Source: a phage. From it: DNA of 64,000 nucleotides. The position numbers were made by a program, and so were the translations under genes. Shown piece by piece: positions 24,160-64,000 of this stretch. The stretch lies in the NCBI GenBank assembly GCA_014435945.1, contig GCA_014435945.1_4088.1. The stretch is one strand, 5' to 3'. The notes below the pieces were generated by a model that was not told the DNA's origin, made no database searches, and saw nothing but the letters and a program-made list of their open reading frames with translations. Positions within the stretch are counted from its first letter, which is position 1, and every line of letters starts with the position of its first letter.

Positions 24160-24771
24160 ATGTCAAAATATCAGGTCTACTATGTTGCCAAACTATCACT
24201 TCTTGATGAGTTAAATCAAAGAAGTACGCAGATGAAACGCTATACATATAACGGTGTTACTTTCCGATACTTCCCACAAAAAGTACTTACATTCGTTAAG
24301 AATCGTAAATGCGTTGCGTGTGGTATTGAAGCCACTGAAGTTCGCATTGAGCGTTCACATAGCACTGATCCGGTATATGGTAAACCTCACTTAAATGTCT
24401 ATGCAGTTTGTGGTCTATATGAAGTACTGATGACAGTAGATCATAACCAATTAGCATCTAAGGGTGGACCTGATTTAGAGTCAAATTACAACACCATGTG
24501 TTCACGTTGTAACAGTCTTCGTTCTAATAAAACTGAATCAGTAGGTGAATTCCTGGAAAAAGTTAAGGGTAGAAATCTACTGGAAGAGCATATGAATGAT
24601 TTTTTCAATAAAGATAAGAAGAAATCTAAAACTCCTACTCCAGAAGAATTGGAAGAACGCCGTTTACGTACAGAACTATGGGAAACCGACCATATATGGC
24701 ATGTTCGTGATTTTGGACGACATATGAAAGCTCTAAAAAAAGAACAAAAGAAATTGAATAATCACAATTAA
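24160..24771 (+). CDS. HNH endonuclease (free-standing homing-type)
   Basis: Zinc-finger CVACG ... HNH core TVDHNQLASKGGPDLESNYNTMCSRCNSLRSN. Confidence 0.55.
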   Translation: MSKYQVYYVAKLSLLDELNQRSTQMKRYTYNGVTFRYFPQKVLTFVKNRKCVACGIEATEVRIERSHSTDPVYGKPHLNVYAVCGLYEVLMTVDHNQLASKGGPDLESNYNTMCSRCNSLRSNKTESVGEFLEKVKGRNLLEEHMNDFFNKDKKKSKTPTPEELEERRLRTELWETDHIWHVRDFGRHMKALKKEQKKLNNHN

Positions 24772-25183: not shown

Positions 25184-25581
25184 TGCTAAAAGAATTAGAT
25201 TTTTCAAACTTAGAAATCATCAGTGCTGTTAAAAATATCTCTGACTTTGGAGATGAGAAGTCAGTACTGGTAACTGTTACATTCGTCAAAGAACAGGATA
25301 GCTATAGCCATTTAGATGGTATTGAAGAACTAATTCACAAGACTAATCTACAAAACGATGGTAAACTCATTAAGCTTCAGGCTTCCTATACGCAAAAATC
25401 GTCATTTTTTGTAGACCTAAATAATGTAGTCAAGGTGGTATACAATCACCCTGAACACAAATACAGGAACACGACAAGAAACGAGAATGATGCTATAGAC
25501 TCCAATATCAAAGAGGATGTCGAATTCATCAACACAATTTTTGACCGTTGTTCCAAGGATTTGAAAAAGGTATACATGTAA
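25183..25581 (+). CDS. hypothetical protein
   Basis: ATG overlapping upstream stop (TAATG); ORF track gave GTG at 25168. Confidence 0.45.
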   Translation: MLKELDFSNLEIISAVKNISDFGDEKSVLVTVTFVKEQDSYSHLDGIEELIHKTNLQNDGKLIKLQASYTQKSSFFVDLNNVVKVVYNHPEHKYRNTTRNENDAIDSNIKEDVEFINTIFDRCSKDLKKVYM

Positions 25582-25601
25582 CGGGACATAACACATCCTA
25601 G

Positions 25602-25610
25602 TGATATAAT
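25602..25610 (+). promoter_or_regulatory. extended -10 promoter element (TGATATAAT)
   Basis: TGnTATAAT; same 9-mer recurs at 36899, 40505, 52848 and 55908. Confidence 0.45.
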
Positions 25611-25887
25611 GTATATTGTAAAATGACAACGGACATTGAAAAATGGATAATGAGAACCTACTTCTCTTGAAAATGTAAAGGATAGATGAGCTTTACCGTT
25701 GTAGCGAACAGCAAAAGAAACCTGTTAGAGTACTGGCAATCAAACAAACACGAGATAAGACCACGAATCACGGCGACACGGCTGTATAAAGAACTCCAAT
25801 AAGCACACAGAGAGTTCCTAGATAGATGTATAAGGTTCGCACCTTACGAATTTGCTAAGGGAGTTCAAGGATTGTGGACGCGATTTT

Positions 25888-25916
25888 ACAAGAAAGTTGC
25901 GTCCAAAATTTGAGAA
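25888..25916 (+). repeat. direct repeat copy 1 (core CGTCCAAAATTTGAGAA)
   Basis: ACAAGAAAGTTGCGTCCAAAATTTGAGAA; 17-nt core identical to copy at 26053. Confidence 0.7.
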
Positions 25917-26040
25917 CAGGTACTACTTTGATCGAATAGAGTTTAGTACTGAGTGCTGTTGATGAAAAGACCAGCGACCGTTGCATATGACTGCGATAGA
26001 GAGAAACCGAGCAACCCGCTTTCGCTCTCTAAATTTTGGT

Positions 26041-26069
26041 ACAGGAAAGATCCGTCCAAAATTTGAGAA
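26041..26069 (+). repeat. direct repeat copy 2 (core CGTCCAAAATTTGAGAA)
   Basis: ACAGGAAAGATCCGTCCAAAATTTGAGAA; core identical to copy 1. Confidence 0.7.
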
Positions 26070-26108
26070 ATTCGCAATTCGATAATATCCGATGCCATCA
26101 TCGTCAAG

Positions 26109-26131
26109 AGAGACTTAATTGTCTCTTTTTT
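26109..26131 (+). terminator. intrinsic terminator (short stem)
   Basis: AGAGAC-ttaatt-GTCTCT followed by TTTTT. Confidence 0.45.
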
Positions 26132-26137
26132 ATTACC

Positions 26138-26161
26138 TTCATTCCCCTGCGGGGGGATGAA
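26138..26161 (+). other. stable GC-rich hairpin with UGCG loop
   Basis: TTCATTCCCC-tgcg-GGGGGATGAA (10 bp with G-U pairs); no following T-run. Confidence 0.5.
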
Positions 26162-26271
26162 ATAGTCCTCAACAAATCCCGTCAAGCTTTTAAAGTACAT
26201 TATCATTTTCAGAAGGAACTAGTTTACGAAGTAAACGTAGTGACTTCTTGAGTTACGAGAGAACGAAGTGA

Positions 26272-26700
26272 ATGAGTAACACAACGAAAATATCCAATAC
26301 ATCTGAATTAACACAAATGTTATTCAAAGAATATTTTGAGTATCAAATCAAAAGCGATCATAATTTGGTTCAGACCTATTTGAAGAGAATCAAAGATCCA
26401 TTAAGTTTAAACAAAGGAACTGAATTTTATAACAGTATTTTAGATTTTATTAATTTAGTTCATACAAACAGACCTATTGTAGTTTTCTTCTTTGATAAAT
26501 CAATTCCTGTAGAAGTTCCTGATAATGTATTTTTTGTTACAGAAACTGATTTAAGTAATCAAAGTACTGTAAGTAGATTAAGGAATTGCTTACTTATAAT
26601 TTGTGATTCTTCATTATATAACAATAGAGTACTATGGAATAGAAGTAAGAGAAATGCAGTTTCAGAAATGAATCCTGAAGTTACCTTTATTATTAACTAA
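26272..26700 (+). CDS. hypothetical protein
   Basis: 142-aa ORF, very AT-rich. Confidence 0.45.
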   Translation: MSNTTKISNTSELTQMLFKEYFEYQIKSDHNLVQTYLKRIKDPLSLNKGTEFYNSILDFINLVHTNRPIVVFFFDKSIPVEVPDNVFFVTETDLSNQSTVSRLRNCLLIICDSSLYNNRVLWNRSKRNAVSEMNPEVTFIIN

Positions 26701-58365: not shown

Positions 58366-58372
58366 AAGAAAA

Positions 58373-58396
58373 GGGAGACTTATGTCTCCCTTTTTT
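58373..58396. terminator. bidirectional intrinsic terminator between convergent modules
   Basis: GGGAGAC-ttat-GTCTCCC flanked by A-run upstream and T6 downstream. Confidence 0.75.
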
Positions 58397-58397
58397 A

Positions 58398-60362
58398 TTA
58401 TCTTAATGTAACCAGTGTACGTCCGGCAAATCTCACATCAGGAGTTGCAGGGATACTGAACACTACGCTTGTTCCATTGAATGTAACACTATCAACTTCA
58501 ACACGAGTGTAAACACCAGTACTTACGAGTTCTTGAATTTCAGCAGTTACTATGTTACTAGCAGTTACTGTTAATGTGTAATATGAGCCGTTTAAAACCC
58601 ACGCTGACGCAGTAAACGGGTCAGTACGTACAGAACCAGAACCAATTGGAACCCATTGTCCTTGGACCTTCTGCATCGATGTACGTTCGGTATTTGAGTA
58701 TGCAATCATACCATCAACACCAACTGAGTTATCAATTGTAGCCAGTACTGGTAATTGAATACCATATCGGTTGAAACGAGTACGAATAACACCGTTATCA
58801 TATATACTTACATCAGCATAACTTCCCATAGTGAAACGTAAGTCTGCACCAAGTAGTTTTATATCACTTTGGTTTGTAGTACTTTCTAATGTGAATACAC
58901 CATTCTCTAGTAAGTTTATGTTTTTGAATTTGTTATTAGTTCCATTGAAATTAGTATTTGCATTATAAGTACTAACACCATTAACTGTAATAGTGTCACC
59001 AGTAGTGTCGCCTAGTGTTGTATTACCTTTAACAACTAAATTCCCGCTGGCAGTGATGTTACCTGCGTTTAAATCACCAGTTAGTGATGTTGATCCATCT
59101 ACAATAATATTTCCATGAAAATGTGATTCACCATTTTTAAATTCAACTTGAACTTTATTCATTGAACTTAAAGAAATAATATTACTACTTGCACTTATCC
59201 CTACGTTTGTGTTTGATGCATTATCAAAACGTATTACTGGCGTAGCTGCTGGTGTAGCGGTAGTTTGGAATAATGTTAATGTTCCATTATTAATTCTAAC
59301 ACGCTCAGTTCCGGCTGTTGTAAAACCAATTGCGTCATCGGATGGATGAAATATACCAGTATTAGCATCGGACCACTTAGTTGGGTCATTACCTGGGTTA
59401 TTCGTTGGGTCAAACGGATTATTATTAAATGTCAATGCTGGTGCTGCTGCACTGCCATACACCACCCCAAAACGCCCAGAGCCGTCTGTTCCATCATTAT
59501 ACATGGAATCGCCAGTTCTACGTAAACACTCAATCACAACGTTATCTATGGATGTTTGAACGGTCCCTGCGTTTGTTCTAAATTGGCGATGATTTGCAAT
59601 CATTACAGTATTGTCATATAATACTGAAGCAGCGGAAATGCTTGTTCTTGACTGACGAAGACGTATATTCTTATCTTCAGTTATAATAATCCAATCACCA
59701 TCTGAAAGTGCAGTTTGGTTCATTGGAACACCAGATGCAAATGGTTTGGTCAAGTCAGTATCTGTTGCTAAATTTTCAAGGCCATCATGTCCAGTACTGG
59801 GAATAGATGCAGTAATAATTCTAGCAAAAGCGTATGTTACTAGTTTAGCACCAGATATATTTGGATTAGAGTCAACATAATATAAAATTTCAATCCAATT
59901 ACCTTGTCCAGTTGGATTTGTAGGTGTAAATGTAACAGGACTTGTTTGTGGATTATTTGCTTCATAATGTGCTTGTGCGGCATCCATTATACCACGAACG
60001 ACATAATAATCACCATTAAGCGATGGTGATGGTGCTGGTAGTGGAGTTTGTGCTAAAGGTGGATCGATATCATCTGGGATGGGATTATATGTACCAACAA
60101 ATTGTAAACCACTAGTTACTGAATCTGGTAATTGGGAAGTAAGAAGTTTACCGTTTGCATCTAGGTTTGCAAAACGTCGATATGCCATTGAACCATCTTC
60201 AAAGTCTAGTACACCTTCAAATGCTTTCCATCCTTTATTGTATCTAATCATCCCTGATCTAACCACATCAGCGGTTTCTTTAGTCGGTGCTTTAGGTAAT
60301 TCTAGAAATGCCTGACTATCTATAATTACACCACCATCACCTCTAATTCGATTTATACTCAT
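58398..60362 (-). CDS. tail fiber / receptor-binding protein
   Basis: 654 aa, Gly/Thr/Asn/Ser-rich with short beta-repeat character; convergent with + strand genes. Confidence 0.55.
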   Translation of the reverse strand: MSINRIRGDGGVIIDSQAFLELPKAPTKETADVVRSGMIRYNKGWKAFEGVLDFEDGSMAYRRFANLDANGKLLTSQLPDSVTSGLQFVGTYNPIPDDIDPPLAQTPLPAPSPSLNGDYYVVRGIMDAAQAHYEANNPQTSPVTFTPTNPTGQGNWIEILYYVDSNPNISGAKLVTYAFARIITASIPSTGHDGLENLATDTDLTKPFASGVPMNQTALSDGDWIIITEDKNIRLRQSRTSISAASVLYDNTVMIANHRQFRTNAGTVQTSIDNVVIECLRRTGDSMYNDGTDGSGRFGVVYGSAAAPALTFNNNPFDPTNNPGNDPTKWSDANTGIFHPSDDAIGFTTAGTERVRINNGTLTLFQTTATPAATPVIRFDNASNTNVGISASSNIISLSSMNKVQVEFKNGESHFHGNIIVDGSTSLTGDLNAGNITASGNLVVKGNTTLGDTTGDTITVNGVSTYNANTNFNGTNNKFKNINLLENGVFTLESTTNQSDIKLLGADLRFTMGSYADVSIYDNGVIRTRFNRYGIQLPVLATIDNSVGVDGMIAYSNTERTSMQKVQGQWVPIGSGSVRTDPFTASAWVLNGSYYTLTVTASNIVTAEIQELVSTGVYTRVEVDSVTFNGTSVVFSIPATPDVRFAGRTLVTLR

Positions 60363-61299: not shown

Positions 61300-64000
61300 T
61301 TAAGCAGTACGTTGTGCAATGAACAAATCAGTAACTGAACTTACACCATCATAAATTACTTGGTAAATGGTCACGCTACCAGCAGTTTTGTTTAGTTCAC
61401 CATCAACAACAGCATAAGTACCATCAGTTGTAAAGTTTCTGTTACCAGTTGTATCTTGTTTAACATAGATGTATACTGATGCAGCTTTACCACCACCAAT
61501 TAGGCCAGTAATTGGAGCCAACGTGGTATCTTGGTCTAGAGTGATGAAGTATACGTTACTTGTACCATCTGGAGTCCATGTTCCGGTTGGAGCAATTACT
61601 GATGATGTAACTTGAGTTGGGATTACATCATACTTTTTGGTAGTTACTGTTGTAGTAGTTAAGTTAGCATTAGTAGTGGTTAGTTCACCAGTTACTGTTA
61701 CTGCCTTATCAAACACAGCATTTTCTTTAAATGATGAAGTTGCATTAACGGTTAGAACGTCAGCCGCTGCGTCACCTAATGTTACGTTACCATTCGCAGT
61801 TAGTGCTCCTGTTACTGCTAGTGTTCCACCTACTGTTGCGTTACCAGTAACGGATGCACTTGCAAGTGTAGCCAAACCTGATGTTGTAATTGTAGAAACG
61901 GTTGTTGCACCGAATCCAGCAGTACCAGTTGCAGAGATATTACCACCTACTGTTAGGTTACCAGCAGTGATACCAACAGTACCAGTGATGTTTGCACCAC
62001 TTGACATAGTTACTGCACCACCAAATGAACCAGTAGTAGTAACTTCTAAAGTATTACCTTTAAGCAATCCAGTTGCAGTGATAGAAGTACCAGCAGTAAT
62101 TGAAGTGTTAGCAGTAATTGAAGTGCCAGCCGCTACGTTGTTAGTTGCAGTCAAAGACTTAACAGCTACATCGGAATCTGCTTGGTTCAATTGTGCATTT
62201 AGTACACCAGTAACAGTAAAGTCACCGTTGTTTACAACGTTACCATTAACGATTAGGTTGTTGTTTTGTGAACCGACTTCACCAATTGTTGCAGAACTTG
62301 AAATAATTGCCGCACCAGCAGTAATATTACCAGCAGAAGATAAAGAATCGGATGCTATTACTGCAAACGGTTCTAGTGTTTGTCCACCAACATCGATATC
62401 TGCGTTAATACCACCTTCAACACGTAGTTTACCAGCAATATAAGTGTCTGGCATAATCTGTACAGTTTCAGGCTGCTCACCTAATGGTGTACCAACTGTT
62501 AGAGTTGCACCAGTTTTAACAGAACCTAGTGTTGTTTGACCAACTACACCTAGTGTACCACCAACGGTTGCGTTGTTAGTTACTGCTAGACCAGTTCCTG
62601 AACCATTCAAGGTTGCAGATGGAGCAGTTACTGCACCAGAAGTTAGTGTTCCACCAATTGTTGCTAAACCAGTTACACCTAATGTTCCACCAAGGGTAGC
62701 ATTACCTGTCGCATTTAATGTTTCAGATAGAGTTAGTGTTTTAGCAGAGATATCTGCACCAGTTAGATCTAAGCTACCAGGAGTTAGTGTTCCAACTACA
62801 GTTACATCGTTACCAAATGTCGCAGCACCAGTAACGCCAAGAGTAGTACTGAAAGAGCCACTTGTTGCAGATACACCAGAAGTTACGATAGAACCAAGTG
62901 ATGCTTGACCAGTTACTCCTAATGTACCACCAATAGTTGCATTATTAGTTACTGCTAGTGCAGTACCAGTACCGCTTAGGGTTGCCGATGGAGCAGTTAC
63001 TTCACCAGTTACACCTAATGTTCCACCTACTGTTGTGTTACCACCAAAGGAAGCTGCACCATCAGAGTGAATAGTTTCAGATACTGACAAACTCTTAGCT
63101 GTAATGTCAGCAGTTGTTAGGTCTAAACCACCTGCTGGTGTGAATACACCTTCAACAGTTACATCGTTGTCAAATGTAGCTGCACCAGTAACATCCAATG
63201 TAGAACTAAATGTACCAGTACTACCCGATACAGCACCGGAAACCAATGAACCAACAGTTGTTACACCAGTAATATTCACAAGACCAGTTACAGTCAATGG
63301 ACCTGAAGATAATGAGCCAGTTACACCTAATGTTCCACCAACGGTCGCATTGTTAGTAACACCCAAACTACCAGCATTCACTGTGCCAGATGCAGTAACA
63401 TCAGTAGTACTAACACCACCACTTAGTGTGCTTAGGCCAGTTGCAGTGATGGTTGAAGCAGTTGCAAGACTATTAGCAGAAATATCTGCACCAGTTAGGT
63501 CAATACCACCTTGTGGAACCAATTCACCTTCAACTGTTAGTTTCTGAACAGTACTATCACCAGATACATTTAAGGATGCAGCACTTAGTGCAGCTACTGT
63601 ACTTTGACCAGTTACATTTAAAGTGGTGTTTACTGTAGTGTTGTTTAAAGTTGTATCACCGGATACTAATATAGCGTTGGTATTGATACCACCAGCATCA
63701 ACTTGAATACCACCAGTGCTTACAGTTACTTTCTTGCCGATATTTACGATATCAGTTAGGGTAGTTGCACCAGTTACTGAAGCAGTACCTGCGACTGAAA
63801 GGTTTCCAGATACGGATGGGCTACCAGTTACAACACCAGTTGTTAGTACTAGGTTACCACCAACGGTAGTATTACCAGAACTAGCAAGGGTAATTGCTGA
63901 AACATTGGAAGAACTTAAATCAATTGAACCATTAACAACTAGGTCACCACCAATTGTAGCACCTTCAGTAGTACTTAGGGATTTAGAACTAATATCGGTA
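61300..64000 (-). CDS. tail fiber protein with repetitive GT-rich units, 5' end beyond window
   Basis: ORF-track start (TTG at 63522) is internal: the same minus-strand frame has no stop from 63523 to 64000; repeated GGTLGVTG-type units. Confidence 0.6.
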   Translation of the reverse strand, partial: TDISSKSLSTTEGATIGGDLVVNGSIDLSSSNVSAITLASSGNTTVGGNLVLTTGVVTGSPSVSGNLSVAGTASVTGATTLTDIVNIGKKVTVSTGGIQVDAGGINTNAILVSGDTTLNNTTVNTTLNVTGQSTVAALSAASLNVSGDSTVQKLTVEGELVPQGGIDLTGADISANSLATASTITATGLSTLSGGVSTTDVTASGTVNAGSLGVTNNATVGGTLGVTGSLSSGPLTVTGLVNITGVTTVGSLVSGAVSGSTGTFSSTLDVTGAATFDNDVTVEGVFTPAGGLDLTTADITAKSLSVSETIHSDGAASFGGNTTVGGTLGVTGEVTAPSATLSGTGTALAVTNNATIGGTLGVTGQASLGSIVTSGVSATSGSFSTTLGVTGAATFGNDVTVVGTLTPGSLDLTGADISAKTLTLSETLNATGNATLGGTLGVTGLATIGGTLTSGAVTAPSATLNGSGTGLAVTNNATVGGTLGVVGQTTLGSVKTGATLTVGTPLGEQPETVQIMPDTYIAGKLRVEGGINADIDVGGQTLEPFAVIASDSLSSAGNITAGAAIISSSATIGEVGSQNNNLIVNGNVVNNGDFTVTGVLNAQLNQADSDVAVKSLTATNNVAAGTSITANTSITAGTSITATGLLKGNTLEVTTTGSFGGAVTMSSGANITGTVGITAGNLTVGGNISATGTAGFGATTVSTITTSGLATLASASVTGNATVGGTLAVTGALTANGNVTLGDAAADVLTVNATSSFKENAVFDKAVTVTGELTTTNANLTTTTVTTKKYDVIPTQVTSSVIAPTGTWTPDGTSNVYFITLDQDTTLAPITGLIGGGKAASVYIYVKQDTTGNRNFTTDGTYAVVDGELNKTAGSVTIYQVIYDGVSSVTDLFIAQRTA

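Follow-up and report, generated by a model that had tools for sequence, protein, structure and literature searches.

The window analysed here is a 64,000-nt stretch of phage DNA (NCBI GenBank assembly GCA_014435945.1, contig GCA_014435945.1_4088.1), which forms part of a RaK2-like ("Asteriusvirus") jumbo phage of Escherichia coli. Our subject is an island poor in open reading frames (ORFs) at positions 25,582–26,271, for which an earlier note, made from the letters alone, had proposed a structured non-coding RNA (ncRNA) locus with its own promoter and terminator. Covariation, together with the recurrence of the promoter–RNA–terminator arrangement in homologues, bears out this proposal, and we are highly confident that the island is the gene of a structured ncRNA belonging to a new family.

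The region 25,400–26,500 is 99.6–99.8% identical to its counterparts in phages Turkey3, EC.P1, Ecwhy_1 and fEgEco12, and 94.7% identical to that of 121Q; by coordinates, the Turkey3 counterpart of the whole window lies at ~86.1–150.1 kb. The G+C content of the island is ~0.42, against ~0.33 and lower in the flanks, in line with the impression by eye that it was GC-richer than its surroundings. The C+A bias suggested at the same time held only in part, as the island is A-rich but G equals or exceeds C across most of the region. The proposed extent also needed amendment: the island itself stands, but not its end, since the conserved unit reaches ~26,296, inside the annotated start of the next ORF. 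The principal elements of the locus are as follows.

25583–25610 (+): sigma-70-type promoter, with a −35-like GGGACA (25583–88), a 16-nt spacer and a TG-extended −10 element TGATATAAT (25602–10)
25617–26131 (+): predicted primary transcript of ~515 nt, its putative start ~7 nt past the −10 element and its 3′ end at the T-run
25658–25862 (+): 5′ domain of the RNA, with helices 1, 2, 4, 5, 6 and 8 (89–100% paired, mostly with compensatory changes)
25863–25917 (+): variable insertion site 1, with direct repeat copy 1 (25887–25916), a long hairpin closed by GUUC/GAAC, the closing pairs of which covary
25977–26028 (+): nearly invariant core GACCGUUGCAUAUGACUGCGAUAGAGAGAAACCGAGCAACCCGCUUUCGCUCU, ~50 nt, with helices 12, 13 and 14 (99.6–100% paired)
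26026–26069 (+): variable insertion site 2, closed by helix 15 (UCU/AGA, 26026–28/26066–68) and containing direct repeat copy 2 (26040–26069)
26108–26131 (+): intrinsic-terminator-like hairpin (GAGAGAC/GUCUCUU) followed by T6
26138–26161 (+): GC hairpin UUCAUUCCCC-UGCG-GGGGGGAUGAA, helix 16 (93% paired, changes almost all one-sided)
26167–26184 (+): conserved 18-nt box CCUCAACAAAUCCCGUCA, consensus CCUCAACAAAUCyCGUCA
~26207–26296 (+): downstream conserved module, in which hairpins with the loop ACG(A/U)AGUGA precede AACGAAAAUAUCC; the annotated start codon of the next ORF (26272) lies within it

The island is non-coding. Substitutions sorted by position modulo 3 numbered 34/35/23 against an 85%-identical relative and 50/43/41 against a 78%-identical relative, whereas the upstream coding sequence (CDS), which served as the control with the same relatives, gave 51/20/7 and 47/30/13. 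Indels of 1, 2, 4, 5 and 7 nt are common among relatives, and the longest ORFs in the island switch frame, strand and length between close relatives. When bacterial start codons are allowed, a 71-aa TTG-start ORF (26,036–26,251, plus strand) and an 87-aa ORF (25,943–26,206, minus strand) appear, neither of them conserved; the non-coding status proposed earlier therefore stands, but not the accompanying statement that no plus-strand ORF reaches 60 aa. A coding frame is excluded by the absence of codon periodicity, by indels that are not multiples of three and by the lack of conservation of the short ORFs, and the comparative analysis revealed no conserved frame that would have spoken against an RNA gene. 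Degenerate or very small protein-coding genes could account for the short ORFs and for the 35–60-aa hypothetical proteins that several GenBank records annotate here, but the same evidence, together with sequence blocks that lack third-position variation across genera, makes this explanation extremely improbable.

Most GenBank records are blank over the region, and others annotate differing 30–60-aa "hypothetical proteins"; records with short CDSs over the RNA include WPEC5, 121Q, A4 and 7t3. In PV654397, PV611058, OR699181-3, PQ330092, MK773491 and others, three to six differing short CDSs lie over the RNA gene on either strand. These automated calls are very probably spurious, which would place erroneous "hypothetical protein" annotation over the RNA in dozens of GenBank records. 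The island is more conserved than the surrounding genes: compared with the PBECO4 group, identity is 95.8% for the island alone and 91.5% with its flanks. Its core remains alignable at 66–70% identity in Mimasvirus, Eneladusvirus and the Munch/7t3 group, and in RaK2 itself the BLAST match is limited to a 49-nt core block.

The signals at its ends mark the island as a putative stand-alone transcription unit. The promoter matches at 10 of 12 positions and has the TG of an extended −10 element, TGATATAAT, at the place reported earlier (25,602–25,610). Given the strength of this sigma-70 promoter and its TG-extended −10, the RNA gene should be transcribed by host RNA polymerase as soon as infection begins. 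At the other end, the hairpin and T-run previously placed at 26,109–26,131 were located at 26,108–26,131, with a hairpin at 26,108–26,127, 9 bp long in the minimum free energy (MFE) fold, and T6 at 26,126–31; five stem pairs covary among homologues in the RNAalifold alignment, and a simple terminator scan did not call the hairpin. In each of the 23 loci first collected, the invariant core is preceded at 280–395 nt by exactly one TGnTATAAT and followed at 130–155 nt by a T-run, a spacing that predicts RNAs of ~430–520 nt. The nhmmer family profile matches 25625–26132 and nowhere else in the window.

Exact copies of the extended −10 motif TGNTATAAT number 15 in the window, against 6.55 ± 2.6 expected. 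Thirteen are on the plus strand (5323, 13247, 25602, 29004, 31324, 36899, 36964, 40505, 47100, 50440, 52756, 52848 and 55908) and two on the minus strand (20394 and 59986), and they are likely to be early host-polymerase promoters. The motif at 29,004 matches the promoter of the RNA gene in 20 of 21 bases. Additionally, a 37-nt stretch at 58371–58407 is 81% identical to the terminator region of the RNA (26,106–26,142), and is probably another terminator of the same type.

Fold and covariation of the RNA

Homologues were collected by scans with degenerate patterns seeded on the core block (25977–26028), which gave 37 matches in IMG/VR, 68 in metagenomes and 11 in GTDB genomes. An nhmmer profile gave 134 matches across all collected loci, and the full-length members were reduced to 51 non-redundant sequences. 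RNAalifold applied to 23 sequences predicted 73 pairs, 48 of them with compensatory changes, and a covariation scan exposed long-range pairings beyond those that RNAalifold can draw. The final model, based on the 51 sequences, comprises 16 helices and 67 pairs, including three pseudoknots (PK1–PK3). Besides the helices already listed, it contains the following elements.

25658–85 (+): hairpin of the 5′ domain with the invariant loop GAAAAUGUA
25690–92/25703–05, 25708–12/25781–85, 25722–25/25770–73 and 25791–95/25813–17 (+): other helices of the 5′ domain
25776–78/25827–29 (+): PK1, ACA/UGU, helix 7 (98% paired); crosses helix 25708–12/25781–85
25919–25950 (+): hairpin, the 7-nt loop of which, AUCGAAU (25931–37), is the 5′ strand of PK2 (helices 9 and 10)
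25931–37/26077–83 (+): PK2, the whole hairpin loop with AUUCGAU, helix 10 (seven of seven pairs compensatory, 99.7% of cells paired)
25954–57/25973–76 (+): hairpin, helix 11 (95% paired, three of four pairs with compensatory changes)
25980–84/26011–15 (+): PK3, GUUGC with GCAAC in the loop of the next hairpin (100% paired)
25992–96/26072–76 (+): helix with the 3′ strand UCGCA, directly followed by the 3′ strand of PK2
25999–26003/26019–23 (+): core hairpin, within the core 25977–26028
26090–26105 (+): 3′ end of the core, where CGUC (26102–05) can pair with the invariant GAUG at 25685–88 or the local GAUG at 26091–94

Support for this model was very strong for an RNA transcribed from the plus strand. 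Standard pairs fill 97.5% of its cells, compared with 81.3% in shuffled controls and 35–47% when partners were slid by one to three columns. Changes on both sides of a pair were seen in 43 of the 67 pairs (532 cells; 134 in shuffled and 39–56 in slid controls), and none of 500 shuffles reached any of the five measures. The strand was assigned from the near-invariant G·U pairs, which on the opposite strand would become A·C mismatches, and from the fold energy: relative to shuffled sequences, the MFE fold of the plus strand has z = −5.1 and that of the minus strand z = −2.5. Taken as a whole, the predicted fold is closed and multi-domain, with at least 16 helices, three pseudoknots, long invariant single strands and two variable insertion sites, and the RNA family is shown to be under strong purifying selection.

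Several details of the fold deserve description. PK1 occurs as AUG/CAU, ACA/UGU and AUA/UAU. A GCUAAGG/CCGUUGC helix in the first RNAalifold prediction was replaced by the GUUGC/GCAAC pairing of PK3, which accounts for all variants. The invariant single strands between helices include CGAAAAUGUAG, GAUAGA and GCUAAGGGAG, the latter two in the 5′ domain, and helix 25722–25/25770–73 encloses a variable insert. The CGUC/GAUG pairing (helix 3) is 94% paired and its pairs never covary, so that either GAUG may be the partner; in the model, pairing with GAUG 25685–88 can close the whole fold. In the type B RNA of phage A4, an 11-nt internal duplication (GAGAGTTCCTCGATAGTTCCTCGA) lies inside one helix, at alignment columns ~243–254, and is a small insertion tolerated in a hairpin.

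The two direct repeats noticed earlier, described as ~29 nt long with an identical 17-nt core, were recovered at 25,887–25,916 and 26,040–26,069 as repeats of 30 nt, 90% identical, with the same core. They fall in the two variable insertion sites. The insert at site 1 is absent from the type A RNAs (see below) of CBB, GAP32, XbC2 and Yen9-04, that at site 2 is absent from the type B copies of BF, Yen9-04, CBB and GAP32, and the B copies of Asteriusvirus have neither. As several relatives lack the inserts, the repeats are copies of one dispensable peripheral hairpin module with an A-rich tail, and not part of the core.

Conservation continues past the terminator. The very stable hairpin with a UGCG loop, reported earlier at 26,138–26,161, was found there, and it follows every family member, whether or not a terminator is present. 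The box is kept in phage and island copies and repeats the UCGUCA(R) with which the core ends. Hairpin and box each occur once in the 64-kb window. A search for pairing partners of the box and of the flanks of the GC hairpin yielded only isolated, clade-correlated column pairs. Beyond the box, the order is TAWAAW (after ~3 nt), an AT-rich stretch, GAAUUGAG and the hairpin with the loop ACG(A/U)AGUGA; the motif of this downstream module was present in 36 of 68 non-redundant loci. In many loci AACGAAAAUUCUUWGACAWUCGWAGAWUGGCWAAUC comes next, with a covarying hairpin (CAUUC/GAAUG versus CAAUC/GAUUG). For the downstream module, a leader, a promoter and a further small RNA are all candidates, and the GC hairpin, box and module may belong to the main RNA, to a second small RNA or to a promoter.

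Comparison with known RNA families

The Rfam scan that the earlier note recommended was carried out, and no family matches the RNA. Rfam 15 gave no match in the window at the gathering score; at E≤10 the region 25300–26500 produced only three unrelated chance matches, and permissive searches of seven other phage loci (E≤5) and of eleven bacterial loci returned nothing at the RNA. The failure to fit a tRNA cloverleaf or a group I intron core by eye was confirmed, as ARAGORN reported no tRNA or transfer-messenger RNA (tmRNA) genes in the window, the Rfam tRNA and tmRNA models were also silent, and Intron_gpI had no match at E≤10. An intron is further contradicted by the absence of exons, by the RNA's own promoter and by flanking genes that vary between paralogues and genera. 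No published description of the RNA was found in our literature searches, some of which were poorly targeted.

Further candidates were examined and set aside. An apparent likeness to motifs of bacterial RNase P RNA lacked covariation support, and neither RNaseP_bact_a, RNaseP_bact_b nor any other RNase P model matched at E≤10. A type III antitoxin (ToxI-like, a tandem array of ~36-nt repeats just upstream of the gene for an endoribonuclease toxin) does not fit, with only two repeats, 153 nt apart and in different hairpins. The hammerhead-like CAGAUGAG is missing a U that the motif requires, and conservation does not extend to the GAA that follows stem II. A resemblance to CRISPR repeats was dropped for want of support from a model, position or covariation.

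The size of the RNA, its pseudoknotted core and its nearly invariant blocks of up to ~50 nt do recall large ribozymes. The substrate of such a ribozyme might be the RNA itself or other RNAs of the phage or host, and its active site might be built from the invariant single-stranded blocks; the two copies of UCGUCA(R), which end the core and the box, are candidate processing sites. However, the Rfam models of RNase P, group I and II introns and the self-cleaving classes were all unmatched at E≤10, and flanking exons are absent; we regard a ribozyme as improbable.

Two other families offer a different comparison. The hosts of ROOL are mainly Firmicutes and Fusobacteria, whereas the RNA described here has other hosts, is not near tRNA genes and occurs as up to four diverged paralogues per genome, a multiplicity unreported for ROOL. 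ROOL and GOLLD are phage or prophage RNAs of unknown function, with many pseudoknots, that form RNA-only cages by means of contacts first seen as covariation (PMC12286853). With ROOL (RF03087), our RNA shares a length of ~500–600 nt, encoding by phages or prophages, helices and pseudoknots recognized by covariation, variable linkers and no known protein partner (PMC12286853). Its location is likewise of the phage/prophage type (jumbo phages and integrase-bearing islands), and covariation supports three pseudoknots, yet the RF03087 covariance model does not match it. GOLLD (RF01998) is also large, ornate and encoded by phages or prophages, and its 5′ region varies more than its conserved 3′ region; but it exceeds 800 nt and is usually found next to tRNA genes or surrounding them, whereas the RNA here has no Rfam match and no tRNA in the 64-kb window. 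The covariation-supported kissing contacts of GOLLD later proved to be intermolecular (PMC12286853). The cages of ROOL and GOLLD are homo-oligomeric.

Abundant long ncRNAs are made by phages of this kind, as is illustrated by jumbo phage PA5oct, which is distantly related to the RaK2-like group: its ncRNA001–004 are unexplained transcripts of 236–619 nt, two of them highly expressed throughout infection (PMC7318152). We considered ncRNA001 and ncRNA002 as homologues and rejected them, as the family profile found nothing at E≤10 in the 16-kb stretch that holds these two.

Copies in jumbo phages and bacterial islands

Among 50,697 phage records, ~70 carry the RNA family, and all of these are RaK2-like phages of ~350 kb. 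Up to four paralogue types (A–D) occur per RaK2-like genome; the full set was found in 121Q and GAP32. The window contains type A only, and neither BLAST nor nhmmer detected a second copy within its 64 kb. In 121Q the copies lie at 90.4, 192.9, 247.4 (the type in the window) and 326.7 kb; those of GAP32 lie at ~35, 177, 261 and 341 kb. Further copies in Turkey3 are found at 61,956–62,433 and 196,235–196,697, and RaK2-type Klebsiella phages have only one or two matching places. The three further copies in 121Q are:

90,362–90,787: type D
192,871–193,317: type C
326,683–327,146: type B

The paralogue types are orthologous across genera, and up to four types have been kept since before the RaK2-like genera diverged. 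The sequence of PK2 differs by type: its 5′ strand is RUCGAAU in type A, AUUGUAU in types B and D, and UUCAUGU in type C, and the partner strand is always complementary. This 7-bp, type-specific helix could form within one molecule as a pseudoknot, or could join separate copies of one paralogue.

The surroundings of the RNA differ between paralogues and genera. The hairpin and T-run are present in A, B and E. coli island copies and absent from C and D copies, in which the GC hairpin and box directly adjoin the core and an ORF on the same strand begins 150–250 nt further on. Type C lies upstream of a small ORF and a Dam-type methyltransferase gene in GAP32, CBB, BF and Yen9-04; the type B copy of fHe-Yen9-04 and the XaC1 copy, too, are followed by a methyltransferase gene. 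The type B unit is opposite in strand to both of its neighbours, EndoVII on one side and a small gene with the baseplate hub on the other.

Complete copies of the unit (promoter, core, GC hairpin and box) were also found in the chromosomes of Serratia fonticola, Serratia sp., Enterobacter chinensis, Silvania, Buttiauxella, other Enterobacteriaceae and two E. coli strains. They are single and sit in small integrated elements, in which a tyrosine or large serine recombinase gene is followed by the RNA on the same strand. At 11 island loci the RNA is followed by a convergent CI-like repressor gene, then a Cro-like gene, a gene for a 286-aa protein and an LprI-like gene. In E. coli LR-29-1 (NZ_AP027515.1, 3,470,260–3,488,515) the RNA lies in a ~10-kb island beside ffs, and in S. 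fonticola a duplicated rof adjoins it, and a serine recombinase gene and two ParB/RepB-like genes are also present. These islands are candidate satellites, defence islands or defective prophages. No plasmid copies of the RNA were found.

The LR-29-1 copy shares ~80% identity with the type B RNA of Serratia phage BF, whereas most other island copies have the PK2 sequence of type C; the RNA therefore seems to have passed between phages and islands on two or more occasions. The presence of the RNA in both virulent jumbo phages and integrase-bearing islands points to a part in phage–host or phage–island conflict, or to a role in replication. PADLOC and PHROGs gave nothing informative on a protein partner shared by phage and island copies, and a search confined to the 286-aa island protein found no homologue of it in phage genomes. 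The neighbouring proteins belong to phrog_9016 and phrog_35272, of unknown function and without toxin annotation. As no protein has so far been seen to be shared by the phage and island contexts, the RNA probably acts alone or with a conserved host component.

These contexts also bear on the possibility that the RNA is a cis-regulatory 5′ leader of early operons, whether an antiterminator like the put RNA of HK022, a riboswitch-like element or an mRNA-stabilizing element. Like put, the A, C and D copies directly follow an early promoter and stand ahead of genes, with a terminator in between in type A. The absence of a terminator from types C and D, the genes that follow type C, the start of the ORF in the window 140 nt past the terminator, and the two GAUG partners of CGUC, which could act as a switch, are all consistent with a leader. 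However, put is only ~70 nt long with two stem-loops, and the RNA here is several-fold larger than known antiterminator RNAs. The genes downstream are unrelated between paralogue types, and in B-type and most island copies, including the 11 loci above, the next gene is convergent, so that there is no co-oriented gene to antiterminate. We therefore rejected a leader or riboswitch as the general role of the RNA, and consider the leader explanation very unlikely.

Candidate modes of action

With moderate confidence, we favour as the best overall explanation a stand-alone gene for a new family of structured RNA that acts in trans as a folded particle. In this proposal the RNA would be transcribed by host RNA polymerase from the onset of infection, with transcription of the copy in the window ending at the hairpin and U-run. 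By analogy with ROOL and GOLLD, the RNA might then act either as an RNA-only assembly or as a scaffold or decoy for a conserved host component; this particular mode, as particle, scaffold or decoy, is put forward tentatively. We think it likelier, nevertheless, that the RNA acts as a particle in trans than that it regulates the next gene in cis.

Several observations weigh against a particle acting in trans. A satellite-like island would need no copy of its own of a helper RNA that acts in trans, which favours a cis role. The terminator-less C and D paralogues run straight into a same-strand ORF, as a leader would. The model leaves the invariance of the GC hairpin, box and downstream module unexplained. 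Moreover, the oligomer and any binding partner are hypothetical, and the transcript and its ends are predicted from the sequence.

The main rival is a cis-acting element of a replication origin, in which a structured primer RNA is made from an early promoter. ColE1 RNA II is a promoter-driven non-coding transcript of ~0.5 kb, and the origin transcripts of T4 (oriF, oriG and oriE) arise at several sites per genome. A primer of this kind could hybridize as an R-loop close to the G-rich hairpin, the box and the AT-rich stretch. The 350-kb genome would have several such origins, and islands, by carrying the element, would have themselves replicated and packaged by an infecting jumbo phage. The four copies of 121Q and GAP32, spaced 53–142 kb apart around the genome, fit this scheme. 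So do the B copies, which are early-promoter transcripts antiparallel to late baseplate genes, an arrangement also found at T4 oriE near gene 5. The conserved C4/G6 hairpin followed by an AT-rich stretch recalls the persistent hybrid of ColE1, which requires a G-rich RNA segment and a C-rich template segment; here too the G/C-rich element is near the 3′ end. Finally, small islands seem to have gained the element at least twice, from different paralogue lineages, and satellites typically copy cis-acting helper sites.

Other evidence speaks against an origin. In A and B copies the terminator hairpin and U6–7 lie between the RNA and the GC hairpin, so that few transcripts would get as far as the proposed transition site. 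The constraint implied by three pseudoknots and long invariant loops far exceeds that seen in known primer RNAs, and the cumulative GC skew has no inflection at the RNA locus. On balance, we judge an origin element to be unlikely, and retain the folded particle acting in trans as our favoured explanation.

It is also conceivable, if rather unlikely, that the RNA is contested between jumbo phages and islands. In that case, an essential cis or trans element of the phage (for example, an RNA that serves as origin or primer, or a particle that assembles itself and has kissing contacts specific to each type) would have been captured at least twice by enterobacterial islands. If this were true, the islands might use the RNA to hitch-hike on phage replication and packaging, or as a dominant-negative decoy that poisons the phage. 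Either would amount to an RNA-based satellite or defence strategy against jumbo phages, for which we found no described precedent.

Large, intricate RNAs are rare in bacteria and phages (OLE, GOLLD, ROOL, RNase P and the self-splicing introns), and each of them has led to new biochemistry or structures. Given that the family is present in the cultivable E. coli phages 121Q and PBECO4, it is open to genetics, structure probing and cryo-electron microscopy.

Finally, an ORF of 203 aa with an HNH motif lies upstream of the RNA gene, at 24160–24771 (plus strand), and is annotated as an HNH endonuclease in 121Q, A4 and WPEC5. It is situated ~0.8 kb from the RNA gene in Asteriusvirus. As it does not adjoin the RNA in the other genera examined, the HNH ORF is probably unrelated to it.

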